Source: Pseudomonadota bacterium (GTDB lineage Bacteria > Pseudomonadota > Alphaproteobacteria > Sphingomonadales > Sphingomonadaceae). From it: 64,000 nt of DNA. A program made the translations under genes and the position numbers. Positions 58,997 to 64,000 of this stretch are shown here, piece by piece; positions within the stretch are counted from its first letter, which is position 1, and the number at the start of each line of letters is the position of its first letter. The DNA is taken from assembly GCA_021847605.1 (NCBI GenBank), contig JAJZQN010000019.1:485-64484 (forward strand), read 5' to 3'. The notes below the pieces were generated by a model, which was given only the letters and a program-made list of their open reading frames with translations, did not search any database and had not been told where the DNA came from.

Positions 58997-59592
58997 AATT
59001 GTTTCCTGGAGCGACGCGGTTCCAACGATGGACGATGGGGGCGACGTTCATGATCGTGGCAACCTATGCAATCTCGCAGAACAAGCAGTCGCTCGTCGAA
59101 GTCTCGAAAACAAGATTGTCTTCGCCAAGTCCTAGGATCATCGATGGGGATACGATTGATTTTCCCAATGGACGGGTTCGCGTCGTCGGCATCGATGCGC
59201 CCGATGATGATCTGCCACAGCTAAAGGCCATCTCCAGCGAGGCGTTGCGCGGGCTGGCGCTCCGGGACGGCGGAATGGACTGCTCGGTGTCTATGTTTGA
59301 CTATGCGCTGCGGCGGGAGAAGCAGTGCCGCACCGATCCGAAAAGCTACGGGCGGTTGAATCTGGCGTGTCGTTTTCCCGCCAATAAGGCGAGCGTGGGG
59401 GCAACGATGGTCGCCCAAGGCTATGCCGTCGACTACCGCATTTTCTCCGGTGGAGCCTATGTCGAGCTGATGCAGAAGGCGGCAGCGCAGCGGGCAGGAT
59501 TATGGGGCGTGGACTATGAGGGAATGCGTCAGCTTGCTGTTCGCAGGGCGCAGGTGCCGCAGGGATGTAGCACAGGGACGATCAAGAAATAG
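58993..59592 (+). CDS. Thermonuclease (SNase)-family nuclease
   Basis: IIDGDTIDFPNGRVRVVGIDAPD matches the SNase motif. N-terminal TM/signal segment. The start overlaps the upstream stop (ATGA). Confidence 0.75.
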   Translation: MKLFPGATRFQRWTMGATFMIVATYAISQNKQSLVEVSKTRLSSPSPRIIDGDTIDFPNGRVRVVGIDAPDDDLPQLKAISSEALRGLALRDGGMDCSVSMFDYALRREKQCRTDPKSYGRLNLACRFPANKASVGATMVAQGYAVDYRIFSGGAYVELMQKAAAQRAGLWGVDYEGMRQLAVRRAQVPQGCSTGTIKK

Positions 59593-59600
59593 GCTGCACA

Positions 59601-59930
59601 ATGCTTGAACGCGGATCGCCAAGAGCGGCATTGATCGGCCGCTGGGGGATGGCCCTCACACTTGTTACCGGCGCGGTCCTGATCGGCCGCCTGATCCGTA
59701 ATTTCCCCTATCTCCTGCCCAATCGGCTTCCTGGCCTTGTCCTATACGAGCTGGGTCCGGCGCTGATCTTGGTTGCTGCGGTCGGCAGCGCCGTGGTCTT
59801 CACCAAGGAAGACGGACCGCGCCTTGGCATCCCTGCGCGGCTCGTGCTGTTTGCACTCGTCGCGACGATCGCCGGGACCGCTACCCTTGCTGCCGAATAT
59901 GCTGCCGCTCTCGACGGGCAATGGCTATGA
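59601..59930 (+). CDS. small membrane protein
   Basis: 109 aa with three predicted hydrophobic helices. Confidence 0.45.
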   Translation: MLERGSPRAALIGRWGMALTLVTGAVLIGRLIRNFPYLLPNRLPGLVLYELGPALILVAAVGSAVVFTKEDGPRLGIPARLVLFALVATIAGTATLAAEYAAALDGQWL

Positions 59931-59936
59931 ACACGA

Positions 59937-59956
59937 GGTGTGCCACGTGGCACACC
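59937..59956. repeat. 20-bp perfect palindrome GGTGTGCCACGTGGCACACC (parS-like), copy 2
   Basis: Exact copy, intergenic, upstream of the ORF at 60005. Confidence 0.9.
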
Positions 59957-60004
59957 CCTATCGCGAGACCTACATGGCGTCGCGATGACTTTTGCGAGGG
60001 TGTG

Positions 60005-60262
60005 ATGCCGATAGAGCCTTTCGTTCTTATTGTTGCCGATCACGACAGGCGCGTCTTTTCGGTCGAGGGGCCGATGGTGGACGACAACCCGTGGTCAAAG
60101 CCGGTCGTCGATGCTCAAGATGGCGGCAAGCGCCACATCAACTGCTTCGTTCCCGGTGGCCCCTCGCGCACCGACGTAGAGACCGCCGCGCGCGAATATC
60201 AGCGTGAATATGGGTATGCGCGTGTTGAGGCGGGATCGATCGTCAGCCGCAAACCCTGCTAA
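60005..60262 (+). CDS. small hypothetical protein
   Basis: 85 aa counted from the ATG at 60005. The parS-like palindrome lies 49 nt upstream. Confidence 0.45.
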   Translation: MPIEPFVLIVADHDRRVFSVEGPMVDDNPWSKPVVDAQDGGKRHINCFVPGGPSRTDVETAAREYQREYGYARVEAGSIVSRKPC

Positions 60263-60283
60263 GGTCACAGGAACCGGCATCAA

Positions 60284-61156
60284 TCAACCTGGTTCGTTCA
60301 TGCTATCTATCTGGCGCATTTGACCCGCCAAGCCGCTCAGACGGCCCTTCAGGCGTTGATCGCCGCTGCCGGGCTGCTGGAGGGCCAACCTCGTCTGACG
60401 GTGCTTCAGGCGCTGGCGATTGGGCACGACGACCTTCCCGTCGCGAACGACGACACCCGTGATCTCCGCTGGCCGATCCACATAGTGCTTGAGCTTGTGA
60501 TAGCGCAGCCCTGTCCGGTGGATCATGCGCCGCACATGCCAAACATCTGCTACGGGCACTTTCGCGCCGGAAATTGTCACGTCATCGACATAGACCGTCA
60601 GCGTGTAGCCCTTGGCCGTGCAGAACGCCGCGATCTCGGCCCACATATCGTGATAGCTATAATATGCCAGGATCGGGCTGAGGGGACTGCCCGTCGGCAA
60701 ATGACCCTCGAACGTGCAAAGATCACCAAGAAGGCCGGCAACGTCGGCGCGGCATCCCATGATGCTTTGGAAGAACGCGATCACCCGCACACGGGGCGTG
60801 TTGGGGAAGAACTTCTTGATGTCGAGGCAGTGAACGACGCGGTTGCCGCGATGGCGCGCGGCATTGCTGACGTAGCATCGTCCCTTCACCGGGCAGAACA
60901 GAAAAGATGGCGGCTCGATCCGCGCCAGCATCTTGGCGATACGGCCCTGTACACGCTTGAGCGGCGCGACCGGATCTTCAACCGGACGTTTTCCGCCACT
61001 CTTCTTCTCAATCTCAAACTGCCGATACCGATCCGGCCCGGTCGCCATTGCCCGCAGCTCAGCTTCTGCAAGGCCGAGCACGTCAGCGAGGCGGCGCGGA
61101 CTCGTGAGCTTATAGAGCTGCGACTGATTGAGCGGGATGACCGTCTTATTCGGCAT
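60284..61156 (-). CDS. Retron-type reverse transcriptase
   Basis: 290 aa. Motifs NAARH (NAxxH), LDIKKFFPN (RT motif A), LPTGSPLSP (motif B), YVDD (motif C) and EITGVVV (VTG-like). The N-terminal ...YRQFEIEKKSGGKRPV..PVAPLKRVQ pattern matches retron RTs. Confidence 0.8.
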   Translation of the reverse strand: MPNKTVIPLNQSQLYKLTSPRRLADVLGLAEAELRAMATGPDRYRQFEIEKKSGGKRPVEDPVAPLKRVQGRIAKMLARIEPPSFLFCPVKGRCYVSNAARHRGNRVVHCLDIKKFFPNTPRVRVIAFFQSIMGCRADVAGLLGDLCTFEGHLPTGSPLSPILAYYSYHDMWAEIAAFCTAKGYTLTVYVDDVTISGAKVPVADVWHVRRMIHRTGLRYHKLKHYVDRPAEITGVVVRDGKVVVPNRQRLKHRQTRLALQQPGSGDQRLKGRLSGLAGQMRQIDSMNEPG

Positions 61157-61451
61157 GGGTCCGACCGGACCGAGCCTCGAGGAATTGAAGCAGGCTCACC
61201 ACCTTGCCAGCGACAAAGGTCCGTGCCTGGTCGAGCGTGCTCTTCTGATCGAGGTTCTCCGAAAAGAACATGATCGACGAGACAGGCATGTCGAAGACAG
61301 TGGCATAGCGCTGGATGATGTCCAGCGTGGGCGTCTTCAGGCCGCGTTCGATTTCCGACAGATACGACGTCGAAACCTCCAACCGCTCAGCCGCCTGCTT
61401 CTGCTTGAGGTCGTGATAGACTCGGATCAAGCGAAGAGCTTCACCCAACAT
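61146..61451 (-). CDS. XRE-family HTH protein
   Basis: ATG at 61451 lies after aaggag. HTH_3 pattern (LKQKQAAERLEVSTSYLSEIERGLKTPTLD). The stop overlaps the RT start by 11 nt. Confidence 0.8.
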   Translation of the reverse strand: MLGEALRLIRVYHDLKQKQAAERLEVSTSYLSEIERGLKTPTLDIIQRYATVFDMPVSSIMFFSENLDQKSTLDQARTFVAGKVVSLLQFLEARSGRTHAE

Positions 61452-61486
61452 TGCATCTCCTTTCAGGAGGCTATTCAGGGTGCGAA

Positions 61487-61660
61487 TTACTGGCGGAAAA
61501 CCTTGATGATGGAGAGGGCGATGTGGAGCAGTTGCACCACCACTCGCCCCAAGGCCACCACCGTCTTCAAAGTGGACGGACGGATCAGGCGCTTTGCCCA
61601 ATGCTGCCGTCGCACCGTCTTCGTTCGCGCACGCTTCTCGTTCAGACCAAGCTTTCGCAT
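61487..61660 (-). CDS. 57-aa basic protein with hydrophobic C-terminal helix
   Basis: ATG at 61660 lies 5 nt after gaggagg. GC-rich third positions. N-terminal half is K/R-rich. C-terminal TVVALGRVVVQLLHIALSIIKVF is TM-like. Confidence 0.55.
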   Translation of the reverse strand: MRKLGLNEKRARTKTVRRQHWAKRLIRPSTLKTVVALGRVVVQLLHIALSIIKVFRQ

Positions 61661-61901
61661 GGCGTCCTCCTCTGCCAACCCCCACACCATGCAGAGGCGC
61701 CGCCGAGGCTTTGGAGGGTGGGGTAGAAGCACGTTAACCCTGAACACCAAGGCGGACACCGGGCCGTCCGGTGGCCGCCCGCGGCGCCGCTCGCTCGCAC
61801 GCACGGAGCCACAAAGCAGAGAAGGTTTCTTCTCCAGGAGGGGGTTCCCCCTCGGTTGATGGCGACACATCCCCTTTCAAACTGAACGAGAGTGTGATGC
61901 C

Positions 61902-61918
61902 CTAGCGCACTTCGCTAG
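61902..61918. promoter_or_regulatory. Palindrome CTAGCG-N5-CGCTAG next to a TTGACT hexamer (candidate operator)
   Basis: On the minus strand, TTGACT is immediately followed by AGCGAAGTGCGCTAG. This is the only AT-rich patch of the RT-module leader. Confidence 0.35.
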
Positions 61919-61924
61919 TCAACG

Positions 61925-61952
61925 AATAAAATCCGCTCACAGCGAATTTATT
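61925..61952. repeat. AT-rich imperfect inverted repeat AATAAA..CGCT-cac-AGCG..TTTATT
   Basis: Seen directly in the sequence. It adjoins the 61902-61918 palindrome. Confidence 0.5.
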
Positions 61953-62229
61953 GCTCTGCTTAAGCGGCGGCCGACGACGTTCCGCCCTTCCCTGCCATGC
62001 GACTGGACGACTCGATGCCAATCTACCGGCGAGCAGGTCATTATGTCTGAAGCTTGCGGGCTGCGTGCCAGTGCCGCAGATAAGCCAAGGGCCGCCCTTT
62101 TGAGGCGGCCCCGACCATTTAGTTCCCTCGCGGGAAACGGACACTCCCCAGGGGGAGGCCGCGCGTGCTCCCCATGTAGAAACCCATCCCTTACGATTCA
62201 ACTAAAATCTGAAAGGACATCAACCGGCC

Positions 62230-62679
62230 TTACGCGCCGGAACCGGTGGGCGTAGGCGGCACCCCCTGAGGCGGCGACGGGGGCGTCGAGGGCACGGGCA
62301 GCCAGGCCAACACAAGGCGCAGCATGTCGTCGAACTCCCCGACCGGCATTCGCATGATGCCGCCTTTGTCAGGGATTAGCCGGCTCACTGCCACGGTCGT
62401 CAGCTTGTCGCAGATCGCGAACGCCGCCCGACCGTCAATCGTGGTCTGCAGCGGAAAGGCCCACTTGTTTCCTGGCTGCGCTGCCGTCGAGCAGGGCACC
62501 ACCGTGACCGCGCCATGCAGCGTGTTCTTGAACGACACGATGATGACGGGGCGCCGCTTCCAGAACTCCGGGAGCTGGGCGTCTTGCGGAAAGTCACACC
62601 AGTAGAGCTGACGGATGCTTGGCGCGGCCGTAACCCTCGGTTCCACTTTCGGGGGTGGATCTTGGATATGCGCGTTCAC
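62230..62679 (-). CDS. PemK/MazF-fold toxin-like protein with Pro-rich C-terminal tail
   Basis: LYWCDFP...E..KRRPVIIVS...VTVVPCST pattern. The GTG start overlaps the upstream stop (GTGA). Confidence 0.7.
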   Translation of the reverse strand: MNAHIQDPPPKVEPRVTAAPSIRQLYWCDFPQDAQLPEFWKRRPVIIVSFKNTLHGAVTVVPCSTAAQPGNKWAFPLQTTIDGRAAFAICDKLTTVAVSRLIPDKGGIMRMPVGEFDDMLRLVLAWLPVPSTPPSPPQGVPPTPTGSGA

Positions 62680-63161
62680 TCGTCGTCATCCTGTACCAGA
62701 CGCAGCTTAGGCGCCCCGGCCCGGTTCTGACGGCGCTTCGCCAGCTCGGCCTTGTCCTTGATCTCAGCCAGCTTCTCGACCGCGAACGGCGCTACTGCCT
62801 TAATCAGCCCATCGAGATGGTAGATGTTGGTGCGGCTGCCGGTTTCGGTCCGCCGCTCCTCGCGACGGATATACCCTGCCCCCTCCAGCGCAGCGATGTG
62901 CTTCTGGATCGTGCGCGGATGAACGTCCATCGCCTTCGCCATCGTGGTCTTGGACGGAAAGGGCTTGCCCTCCGCCGTCCACCATTTGCTCGCCAGATAC
63001 ACGATGATGTTGAGATCGAGCGGCGACAGCATGAGCTGGCGCTGATTTTCGATGATGACGCTCGGCAATGCAGTCCAGCCCGCATCCATCAGCGGCTTGG
63101 TCCACTTCTTCTCATTCGTTCGCAGATCGGCGCTGCTGTCCTTTTGCTTTTTCGCAGCCAT
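62676..63161 (-). CDS. winged-HTH protein (candidate antitoxin/regulator)
   Basis: ATG at 63161 lies after aaagga. MAKAMDVHPRTIQKHIAALEGAGYIRRE is a wHTH pattern. Translationally coupled to the PemK-like gene. Confidence 0.6.
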   Translation of the reverse strand: MAAKKQKDSSADLRTNEKKWTKPLMDAGWTALPSVIIENQRQLMLSPLDLNIIVYLASKWWTAEGKPFPSKTTMAKAMDVHPRTIQKHIAALEGAGYIRREERRTETGSRTNIYHLDGLIKAVAPFAVEKLAEIKDKAELAKRRQNRAGAPKLRLVQDDDE

Positions 63162-63216
63162 GTGATTATCCTTTCTGGCTGCAAATATGCCCCTCGCGCG
63201 AAGGGGATTCAAGTTT

Positions 63217-63265
63217 GAGGGGGCGGCACTAGGGGCGCCCCACAGGGCGCGCAGGCCGCCCCCTC
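63217..63265. repeat. Strong GC-rich nested hairpin
   Basis: 11-bp arms GAGGGGGCGGC and GCCGCCCCCTC enclose an inner GGCGCCC-caca-GGGCGC hairpin. Confidence 0.7.
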
Positions 63266-63441
63266 CCCGGCCCTTTGGACCGCCCACCCGGGAGCCACAC
63301 GGGGCCTACAAAGCATAGGACATCCCCATATAGGAACCGCTCAGGGTACACTCCTGGCGTATCAACCGAGGATAAACCCAGCGGGAGCCCCCACGGCCTC
63401 CCCCTCTCCCCGTGTTTTCCTATTCGCGCTGCCGCAAGGCA

Positions 63442-63461
63442 GGTGTGCCACGTGGCACACC
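63442..63461. repeat. 20-bp perfect palindrome GGTGTGCCACGTGGCACACC (parS-like), copy 3
   Basis: Exact copy, in the 600-bp region between the wHTH gene and ardC. Confidence 0.9.
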
Positions 63462-63761
63462 CCCCATGACACGCCTGGAGCGTGGCACAGCTTGTTGGGC
63501 ACGCTGCCCTCCCCCGGAGGCCAGACCGGTGCCGGGGAACACCAAGGGCGGCTGCCCTTTCGTTCCCGAACGACAATCAGGCCCCCCGTGTAATCCGCCA
63601 AACGCGGCACCCGACGCCCTGCGGAGCGTCGGCCGCGCTAGGCGGCTCGCCCGCGCCAGAGGCCAGATTCTCGCCCTCCCTCCCCATCCCGTTCCTCGCC
63701 GGAAAGGCAGAGCCGGTTGCTGTTGCGACCGGCTTTCAGCCTCAAAGGAAAGGAAGACATC

Positions 63762-64000
63762 ATGGGACGGATCACCGACAATCGAGCCGACATCTATCAG
63801 GAAATCACCGATCAGATGATCGCGATGATCGAGGCAGGCACCCGGCCTTGGTCGAAATCGTGGAACGGCAGCACCGCACCGAATATCCCGCTCCGCTCGA
63901 CCGGCGTTCCCTATCGGGGCATCAACGTCCTGACCCTTTGGGTTGCCGCCATGACCAAGGGCTATGGCTCTCCGCATTGGCTGACCTTCAAGCAGGCGCT
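63762..64000 (+). CDS. ardC: ArdC-like antirestriction protein, N-terminal ssDNA-binding domain (partial, runs off the window)
   Basis: ATG at 63762 lies after aaaggaaaggaag. Translation by hand: MGRITDNRADIYQEITDQMIAMIEAGTRPWSKSWN...GVPYRGINVLTLW...SPHWLTFKQA, which matches the ArdC/DUF1738 N-terminus. Absent from the ORF track because no stop occurs in the window. Confidence 0.75.
   Translation, partial: MGRITDNRADIYQEITDQMIAMIEAGTRPWSKSWNGSTAPNIPLRSTGVPYRGINVLTLWVAAMTKGYGSPHWLTFKQA

Follow-up and report, generated by a model that had tools for sequence, protein, structure and literature searches.

The window analysed here is a stretch of 64,000 nucleotides from a sphingomonad assembly (GCA_021847605.1, contig JAJZQN010000019.1, positions 485 to 64,484), and all coordinates below refer to the whole of it. 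At 60284-61949, the minus strand carries a cassette of about 1.67 kb, in which a structured RNA leads into three genes encoding a small protein (SP), a helix-turn-helix (HTH) protein and a reverse transcriptase (RT). With a probability of about 0.88, this cassette is a Type VI retron that acts against phages by abortive infection and is carried on a Sphingobium-type MOBP/VirB plasmid. The family membership of RT and HTH, the conservation of SP, the RNA helices and repeats and the boundaries of the cassette were observed directly, and all the defining Type VI features that lend themselves to in silico examination were found at the locus. The three genes are as follows.

61487-61660, minus strand: SP gene, 57 aa; probable toxic effector by analogy with relatives; Shine-Dalgarno sequence (SD) GAGGAGG; homologues lie at the same place
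61146-61451, minus strand: HTH gene, 101 aa; Cro/C1 (XRE) family; PADLOC HTH_VI, Pfam HTH_3
60284-61156, minus strand: RT gene, 290 aa; retron reverse transcriptase, Type VI; PADLOC RT_VI, Pfam RVT_1

As open reading frames (ORFs) on the minus strand, the end of the HTH gene and the start of the RT gene share 11 nt, while a 35-nt spacer separates the end of SP from the HTH start downstream. GAGGAGG precedes SP, and the G+C contents at the three codon positions of this small ORF (0.60/0.40/0.76) match the pattern of HTH and RT. An initial annotation had already listed the three ORFs within 60284-61660 with their lengths, the overlap, the spacer, the GAGGAGG and the GC-rich third positions, all of which are in the sequence.

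Family assignment of the three proteins

Type VI retrons were defined in 2020 by a clade 3 RT, a Cro/C1 HTH protein of cluster 2_1 (91-110 aa) and a small auxiliary protein devoid of known domains (PMC7736814). The operon has since been described as non-coding RNA (ncRNA), SP, HTH and RT (Zhang et al., bioRxiv 10.1101/2025.10.22.683967), and SP-HTH-RT was called canonical for Type VI (Garcia-Rodriguez et al., bioRxiv 10.64898/2026.04.27.721009).

The RT of the cassette matched the PADLOC profile RT_VI at 1.5e-88 (294.8 bits), its residues 12-287 aligning with positions 1-275 of the 279-position profile. The runner-up PADLOC family, RT_III-A, reached 140 bits, RT_IV and RT_V scored 91.9 and 90.5 bits, and the best 25 PADLOC matches were all retron RT families. 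The best NCBIfam matches were retron families as well, at sub-threshold scores, and the PDB matches were exclusively retron RTs (Ec86, Ec67, Kva2 and Ec78). Among them, the closest solved structure was the Ec86 RT (7v9u, 7v9x, 8qbk; E = 1e-16, residues 37-253), and no Type VI retron structure was found in the PDB search. Pfam returned the generic RVT_1 alone, and the group II intron RT model of NCBIfam scored 28.3 bits against a cut-off of 300. The RT motifs reported earlier are all present, namely NAARH (98-102), then LDIKKFFPN, LPTGSPLSP, YVDD (189-192) and EITGVVV (231-237), which includes ITG at 232-234; N98, A99, H102, Y189, D191, D192, T233 and G234 are invariant among 20 RT homologues. 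The matches in PADLOC, NCBIfam and PDB agree with the early recognition of a retron-type RT module. Its profile scores assign the RT to Type VI within clade 3 of the retron RTs.

The HTH protein matched PADLOC HTH_VI at 3.7e-35 over positions 1-91 of the 92-position profile, and Pfam HTH_3 at 2.3e-11. The PADLOC check that the initial annotation had proposed was thus run, with RT_VI and HTH_VI both matched at full length. Residue R7 of the HTH protein is kept in 47 of 49 loci. The HipB-like model TIGR03070 gave 25.9 bits against a cut-off of 71.65; as for a type II toxin-antitoxin system with an XRE antitoxin, the curated antitoxin threshold was not reached and SP had no family match in PADLOC, Pfam or NCBIfam. 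Judging from experimentally characterised relatives, the HTH protein is probably a restrainer of both SP and reverse transcription, and possibly an autoregulator; together with SP, it may act like a toxin-antitoxin pair, as in Retron-Sen3 of Salmonella enterica.

The protein search returned 725 RT homologues at E <= 1e-20, many of them named as sphingomonad proteins, with identities graded from 100% to about 55% among the 120 listed. Plasmids of Microvirga, Agrobacterium, Azospirillum and others also carry related RTs. Loci from genomes (14) and metagenomes (80) were compared. Nearly every locus with sufficient upstream sequence has the HTH gene immediately ahead of the RT gene, and in 50 loci (49 distinct sequences) an ORF of 50-61 aa with its own SD is found 29-61 nt before HTH. 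This conservation of SP reaches down to 40% RT identity. Over the stretch covered by SP, none of the loci has an open +1 frame and 9/49 have an open +2 frame, a control that is partly circular, as the loci were chosen by having the ORF. The synteny of SP, HTH and RT is far beyond chance. The synteny check suggested at the outset therefore came out positive, and the 57-aa ORF, whose lack of conservation was to count against the proposal, exists in 49 distinct versions.

The N-terminal 25 residues of SP have a net charge of +9, and its top 19-aa hydropathy window (VVALGRVVVQLLHIALSII) reaches 2.15, which is membrane-helix-like; the hydrophobic segment contains R39, Q43 and H46. The 49 distinct homologues follow the pattern D.ERRR.K...R..WA..L..P.TLK.L...G....F, with an acidic/basic N-terminus carrying ERRR-like and K/R runs, then W-A..L..P.TLK, a conserved G, a hydrophobic stretch and F-[RK]-x. 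Their hydrophobic segment shows periodic R, K or E residues, and the conserved G near its middle probably splits it in two. The Lys/Arg-rich N-terminus described earlier stands, while the single hydrophobic, TM-like helix holds in part, because the copy in the window reaches 2.15 but the threshold of 1.6 is attained by 30/49 homologues only; a transmembrane-like character of SP is possible, not established, from its sequence.

Type VI SPs have no recognisable domain (PMC7736814) and are highly divergent between lineages. Published models of Type VI SPs show a two-helix core and a hydrophobic C-terminal helix, the killing mechanism being not known. The size of the SP points to the heterogeneous 'Large' lineage, which includes Retron-Vpa2 of Vibrio parahaemolyticus. 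Experiments on Vpa2 and Sen3 showed that SP is the toxin and that HTH restrains it (10.1101/2025.10.22.683967; 10.64898/2026.04.27.721009). By analogy with these two systems, the SP of the cassette is most likely the toxic effector, and the earlier guess of a small-protein effector with an XRE regulator agrees with those experiments on homologous operons.

Structure and covariation of the hybrid RNA

Upstream of and around the SP gene, a conserved, covarying RNA is predicted with the following elements.

61452-61887, minus strand: hybrid RNA (hyRNA), in which a structured leader of ~225 nt precedes the SP coding sequence and an inverted-repeat arm lies at the 3' end; predicted ends
61882-61887 with 61640-61645, minus strand: 5'-terminal strand GTTCAG paired with CTGAAC in the SP coding sequence; 6 bp, 88.8% paired, 5/6 pairs double-sided
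61861-61865, minus strand: element X, TCGCC, complementary to direct repeats DR1 and DR2
61838-61853, minus strand: hairpin P2, GAGGGG/CCCCTC, from RNAalifold; 91.4% paired
61818-61835, minus strand: hairpin P3, GGAGAAG/CTTCTCT, from RNAalifold; 94.3% paired
61751-61779, minus strand: hairpin P5, long and G+C-rich; 8 bp counted, all with double-sided changes, 87.5% paired
61764-61768, minus strand: direct repeat DR1, GACGG, in the apical loop of P5
61737-61743, minus strand: inverted repeat IR1, TCAGGGT, pairing with IR2; 93% paired
61475-61481, minus strand: inverted repeat IR2, ACCCTGA, in the SP-HTH spacer just 3' of the SP stop codon
61725-61732 with 61631-61638, minus strand: GTGCTTCT paired with AGAAGCGT in the SP coding sequence (about codons 8-10); 8 bp, 92.2% paired
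61713-61716 with 61667-61670, minus strand: anti-Shine-Dalgarno (anti-SD) CTCC paired with the SP SD GGAG; 84.2% paired, 4/4 pairs double-sided
61700-61704, minus strand: direct repeat DR2, GGCGG, in the riboregulator arm between anti-SD and SD

Covariation was counted on alignment A3 (43 loci, 55 proposed pairs, 2224 cells), with controls in which the partners were slid by 1-3 columns. Paired cells amounted to 89.1% (42-50% in the slid controls), double-sided changes to 454 (53-122) and the covariation score to 0.535 (0.11-0.16), and none of 500 shuffles came up to the values observed. RNAalifold on 23 loci gave 31 pairs, 21 with compensatory changes, including two hairpins and the anti-SD:SD helix. 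The strongest covarying helix of the scan was GTGCTTCT:AGAAGCGT, with 20 further pair types. Compensatory changes in IR1/IR2 occur in many loci, such as ATGCGAGGT/ACCTCGCAT in L039 and AATACCGGGTTA/TAACCCGGTATT in L052, and those in the RNAalifold anti-SD:SD helix are exemplified by CCTTCTT/AAGAAGG. By covariation and repeats, judged on our own helix counts, this is a structured ncRNA of the Type VI kind.

Element X is 87.8% paired with DR1, all 5/5 pairs being changed on both sides, and 82.0% paired with DR2 (25-65% in slid controls); from the sequences, the two pairings appear equally plausible. In 26/43 loci, DR1 and DR2 coincide over 6 nt or more, in a word that is lineage-specific, while the copies in the window are imperfect (5/6, GACGGC vs GGCGGC). 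Hairpin P5 is a candidate msd, i.e., the template of reverse transcription, by analogy with Vpa2. A further helix, P1 (GGGG 61871-61874 with CCCC 61720-61723), is weak at 74.8% paired. Three RNAalifold helices from alignment A2 (columns 23-26/158-161, 95-97/145-147 and 188-190/208-210) were dropped, because the better-supported X:DR1, P5 and IR1-IR2 use the same or neighbouring bases.

Two distinct segments of the leader pair with SP codons 5-10 (CTGAACGAGAAGCGT, 61631-61645), each with strong covariation, so that RNA as well as protein would constrain the basic, ERRR-like start of SP.

A canonical msr-msd with long terminal a1/a2 repeats was not found at the locus. The inverted repeats are short (6-7 bp), one arm lying either within the SP coding sequence or past its end, and a departure of Type VI ncRNAs from the canonical msr-msd layout is known (10.1101/2025.10.22.683967; 10.64898/2026.04.27.721009). 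The initial annotation had been unable to identify a canonical msr-msd, a statement now superseded by the covarying RNA.

In a metagenome relative (L051, 1374-2176), the SP-like ORF ends ~630 nt upstream of HTH, compared with ~40 nt usually. No convincing ORF was found in this gap, which may be an insertion into the hybrid RNA.

Promoter region, cassette boundaries and plasmid setting

Two features lie upstream of the hybrid RNA.

61929-61949, minus strand: palindrome AAATTCGCTGTGAGCGGATTT at the 5' edge of the cassette; putative operator or terminator
61894-61922, minus strand: putative promoter, with -35 TTGACT at 61917-61922, a weak -10 CATCAC at 61894-61899 and a start near 61887

A 7+3+7 palindrome with the consensus nTTCGCTnnnAGCGAAn (at least 6/7 arm matches) is found in 38/44 loci, at -330 to -230 from the SP start. 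It is conserved in sequence rather than covarying, which would suit a site bound by a dimeric protein, HTH being the simplest candidate; the palindrome is probably the operator of the HTH protein, as judged from its sequence. An insulating terminator is a fair alternative, since the terminator scan picked up the palindrome too, as a stem with a T-rich tail behind it. A TTGAC-like hexamer 3' of the palindrome is conserved in the alignment, from which we infer the placement of the promoter; a sigma-70 scan with the E. coli consensus found no promoter in the region. The transcript would start at or upstream of 61887, because the covarying 5' helix occupies 61882-61887.

Similarity among close relatives begins sharply at the palindrome (61929-61949) and stops at the RT stop codon, delimiting the cassette to 60284-61949. 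The plus-strand ORFs 59601-59930 and 59921-60262 downstream of RT were considered as parts of the module and rejected, because this similarity ends at the RT stop codon. The genomic contexts vary. The 2.7-kb query 59600-62300 is 99.7% identical to plasmid p4 of Sphingobium xenophagum C1 (79.9 kb, MOBP, with VirB type IV secretion system genes close by), whereas in L006 (1914-1988) a tRNA-Thr(GGT) gene lies ~280 nt upstream of the cassette, and near-identical cassettes are also present on very long contigs, which are probably chromosomal.

RefSeq labels the three ORFs of p4 generically as RT family protein, HTH regulator and hypothetical protein. On one flank of the cassette in p4, RefSeq lists a toprim-domain gene, a thermonuclease-family gene and two hypothetical genes, and on the other a PemK/MazF pair. 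The conjugative context, primase-like and nuclease genes and toxin-like pair proposed from the letters of the window are accordingly found, as the VirB, toprim, thermonuclease and PemK/MazF genes of this near-identical plasmid.

In the window, a PemK/MazF-family toxin gene lies directly upstream of the cassette (62230-62679, minus strand), overlapped by a gene for an HTH-domain protein that runs from 62676 to ~63161 (the end being taken from RefSeq of the near-identical plasmid). The region 62230-63161 is a second toxin-antitoxin-like pair beside the retron. The words GTGCCACGTGGCACAC and TGCCACGTGGCACAC recur near ORF ends at 59921-59960 and 63330-63440, and a similar palindrome, CTGTGCCACGTGGCACAC, lies 3' of the RT stop in L018 and L019; this set may represent a repeated palindromic element. 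Finally, Rfam gave a sub-threshold match to Pseudomonas sRNA P26 at 63683-63735 (27.3 bits vs a gathering score of 36, E = 0.012), which is in essence a G+C-rich hairpin and probably either chance or a terminator.

Mode of action, alternatives and significance

According to studies on relatives, the cassette would work as follows. A single promoter behind the conserved palindrome would give rise to a hybrid RNA with the ~225-nt leader and SP, followed by the overlapping HTH and RT ORFs. In the resting cell, the anti-SD would occupy the ribosome-binding site (RBS) of SP, two long-range helices would hold SP at about codons 5-10, and the IR1/IR2 inverted repeat would bracket the SP gene. RT, HTH and the hybrid RNA would form a complex, in which HTH would repress reverse transcription, neutralise SP, or both. 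Phage infection, probably sensed via phage recombination functions or RecBCD inhibition, would then bring about SP toxicity, so that the infected cell stops growing. In a Vpa2-type mode, the cDNA of P5 would carry the complement of DR1 and pair with DR2 in the riboregulator arm, freeing the RBS.

Retron-Vpa2, a Type VI member of the 'Large' lineage, resembles the locus in its ncRNA-SP-HTH-RT order, its SP of 55 aa (57 aa here, both with a hydrophobic C-terminal half), its hyRNA of ~470 nt (~435 nt predicted here), an RBS held in a stem, a 3' end that base-pairs with the first arm by way of inverted repeats, direct repeats in an msd-type loop and a riboregulator loop, and the kept HTH R7. In Vpa2, cDNA accumulates on triggering only and de-represses SP translation, the HTH change R7D is toxic, and the multicopy single-stranded DNA (msDNA) maps to a long stem-loop with one repeat in a loop; Type VI hyRNAs carry 7-nt repeats, one in the msd loop and one in the riboregulator loop (10.1101/2025.10.22.683967). 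Unlike Vpa2, which was studied by experiment, the present locus is known from sequence; it is alphaproteobacterial and plasmid-borne, the two being compared by description. Its repeats are imperfect, and it has two extra helices to SP codons 5-10 as well as X, all of which the published model may already contain.

Retron-Sen3, of the cl2075 lineage, shares with the locus the SP-HTH-RT order, a structured ncRNA within ~280 nt upstream of SP, a long-range IR1-IR2 stem around the SP coding sequence and an SP RBS in the basal stem. It differs in its SP, which has 79 aa (57 aa here), is extended at the N-terminus and carries an amphipathic helix at the C-terminus, a helix that has been proposed as the HTH interface for the cl2075 SPs of Type VI retrons, and in its SL3 of ~166 nt, the largest hairpin counted here being P5 with 29 nt (61751-61779). 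In Sen3, cDNA and SP are made constitutively, HTH neutralises SP post-translationally, and HTH-SP is a toxin-antitoxin module independent of RT and ncRNA (10.64898/2026.04.27.721009); Sen3 makes its single-stranded DNA (ssDNA) at all times, while the mode of the present cassette is read from analogy.

The same Type VI retron might thus operate as Sen3 does, with constitutive ssDNA and SP, HTH as a post-translational antitoxin, toxin release upon inhibition of a RecBCD-type surveillance, and the RNA structure as a scaffold rather than a switch. This is a serious contender, though somewhat short of an even chance. Sen3 has the same operon, a stem-sequestered RBS and IR1-IR2 around SP, yet its SP is constitutive; the imperfect DR1/DR2 of the window fit such a mode, and the conservation of HTH R7 is compatible with either. 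However, the SP of 57 aa is like that of Vpa2 and unlike that of Sen3, being too short for both a ~25-residue N-terminal extension and a long amphipathic C-terminal helix, and anti-SD:SD and the repeats co-evolve across the family, which suggests that they are used. We lean slightly towards the Vpa2-type mode on account of the co-evolving anti-SD, the co-evolving repeats and the short SP.

Several points weigh against the reading as a Type VI retron or against parts of it. The imperfect DR1/DR2 of the window weaken a Vpa2-type riboregulator for this copy. The helix 61882-61887:61640-61645 and P1 cross IR1-IR2 and GTGCTTCT:AGAAGCGT, so that they cannot all nest and a pseudoknot or alternative conformers would be required. 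The contrast with the slid controls is inflated, because some helices were picked on the alignment that was also used for counting; P2, P3, IR1-IR2 and the anti-SD were first seen by eye or by RNAalifold on other alignments. The single-sequence fold of 61440-62060 is unexceptional (z = -1.94), and Rfam gave chance-level matches and no retron RNA family over 59000-64000 at E <= 10, the presence of a Type VI model in Rfam being unchecked. SP was set against Vpa2, Sen3 and the SP clusters cl2075, cl2760, cl3272 and cl3897 by size and description, and cDNA synthesis, SP toxicity, the HTH role, the trigger and defence are carried over from published relatives.

Other explanations fare less well. 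Plasmid addiction through post-segregational killing, or an establishment module, with SP-HTH as toxin-antitoxin and phage defence secondary or absent, seems improbable. Such a role would accord with the independence of Sen3 HTH-SP from RT and ncRNA, with the position on a MOBP/VirB plasmid beside another toxin-antitoxin pair and with the relatives on plasmids of other Alphaproteobacteria; but near-identical cassettes lie elsewhere, such as near tRNA-Thr (L006) and on the very long, probably chromosomal contigs, and RT and the RNA structure are conserved together with SP and HTH, although they would be superfluous for a plain toxin-antitoxin pair. Moreover, all Type VI retrons tested show phage defence, by abortive infection in Vpa2, Eco12 and Sen3, and the anti-defence or plasmid-establishment role once suggested found no support in the evidence gathered. 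An undescribed retron subtype, or an RT-based defence or anti-defence unit with no known effector, as the initial annotation had it, is very unlikely: SP is unmatched in Pfam, NCBIfam and PADLOC and RefSeq names the three genes generically, but Type VI SPs are known as domain-less and divergent, RT (1.5e-88) and HTH (3.7e-35) match the Type VI profiles at full length, and the order, sizes and RNA architecture are those published for ncRNA-SP-HTH-RT operons. SP and HTH being the known partners of Type VI, the module does not lack a known effector. That a non-retron RT (Abi-type, DRT/UG or a group II intron remnant) stands by chance beside an XRE regulator can practically be dismissed, for the generic RVT_1 and the weak group II intron match are outweighed by the top PADLOC, best NCBIfam and sole PDB matches, all retron, by the NAARH and ITG motifs and by an HTH-RT pairing kept in dozens of loci.

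Comparison with other retrons leads to the same placement. Type VI as described by Mestre in 2020 agrees in the clade 3 RT, the HTH of 91-110 aa upstream of or overlapping RT (101 aa here) and the domain-less small protein, and differs in its auxiliary clusters of 75-79 aa (57 aa here) and in that no ncRNA was then recognised for the type. Retron-Eco6 and Retron-Sen1, from sister groups in RT clade 3, have related RTs (RT_IV and RT_V), but these profiles score far below RT_VI on the RT of the window, and the partners are 2TM proteins or cold-shock-domain proteins, with abundant msDNA as the antitoxin. Retron Ec86 (Retron-Eco1) shares the retron RT fold and motifs; unlike the present cassette, it is of type II-A, its effector resembles a nucleoside deoxyribosyltransferase, its msr-msd is canonical with terminal a1/a2 repeats, and its msDNA keeps the toxin off instead of switching it on. 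The locus is an ordinary member of Type VI, not a new kind of system.

For annotation, three generically labelled genes can now be named as one Type VI retron with boundaries at 60284-61949, RNA included. Both characterised Type VI systems, Vpa2 and Sen3, are gammaproteobacterial, and the present one adds a large sphingomonad/alphaproteobacterial branch. The comparison of 43 loci provides independent covariation support for the hybrid-RNA architecture, namely the inverted repeat that flanks the toxin gene, the anti-SD and the co-evolving direct repeats. Possibly new are the two helices that clamp the SP codons, element X and the palindrome that resembles an operator, although they may already sit in the published covariance models. 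Tentatively, the hybrid RNA of this alphaproteobacterial lineage may carry control elements beyond the published Type VI model. Candidates are the two crossing helices clamping SP codons 5-10, with the 5' end of the transcript and the segment after IR1 as partners. X, which matches the cDNA copy of DR1 in sense, could be a built-in RNA mimic or competitor of msDNA at the riboregulator, and the retron HTH could have its DNA operator in the conserved promoter palindrome TTCGCT-N3-AGCGAA. If these elements are real and absent from the published covariance models, they would refine the view of how reverse transcription is coupled to toxin translation.

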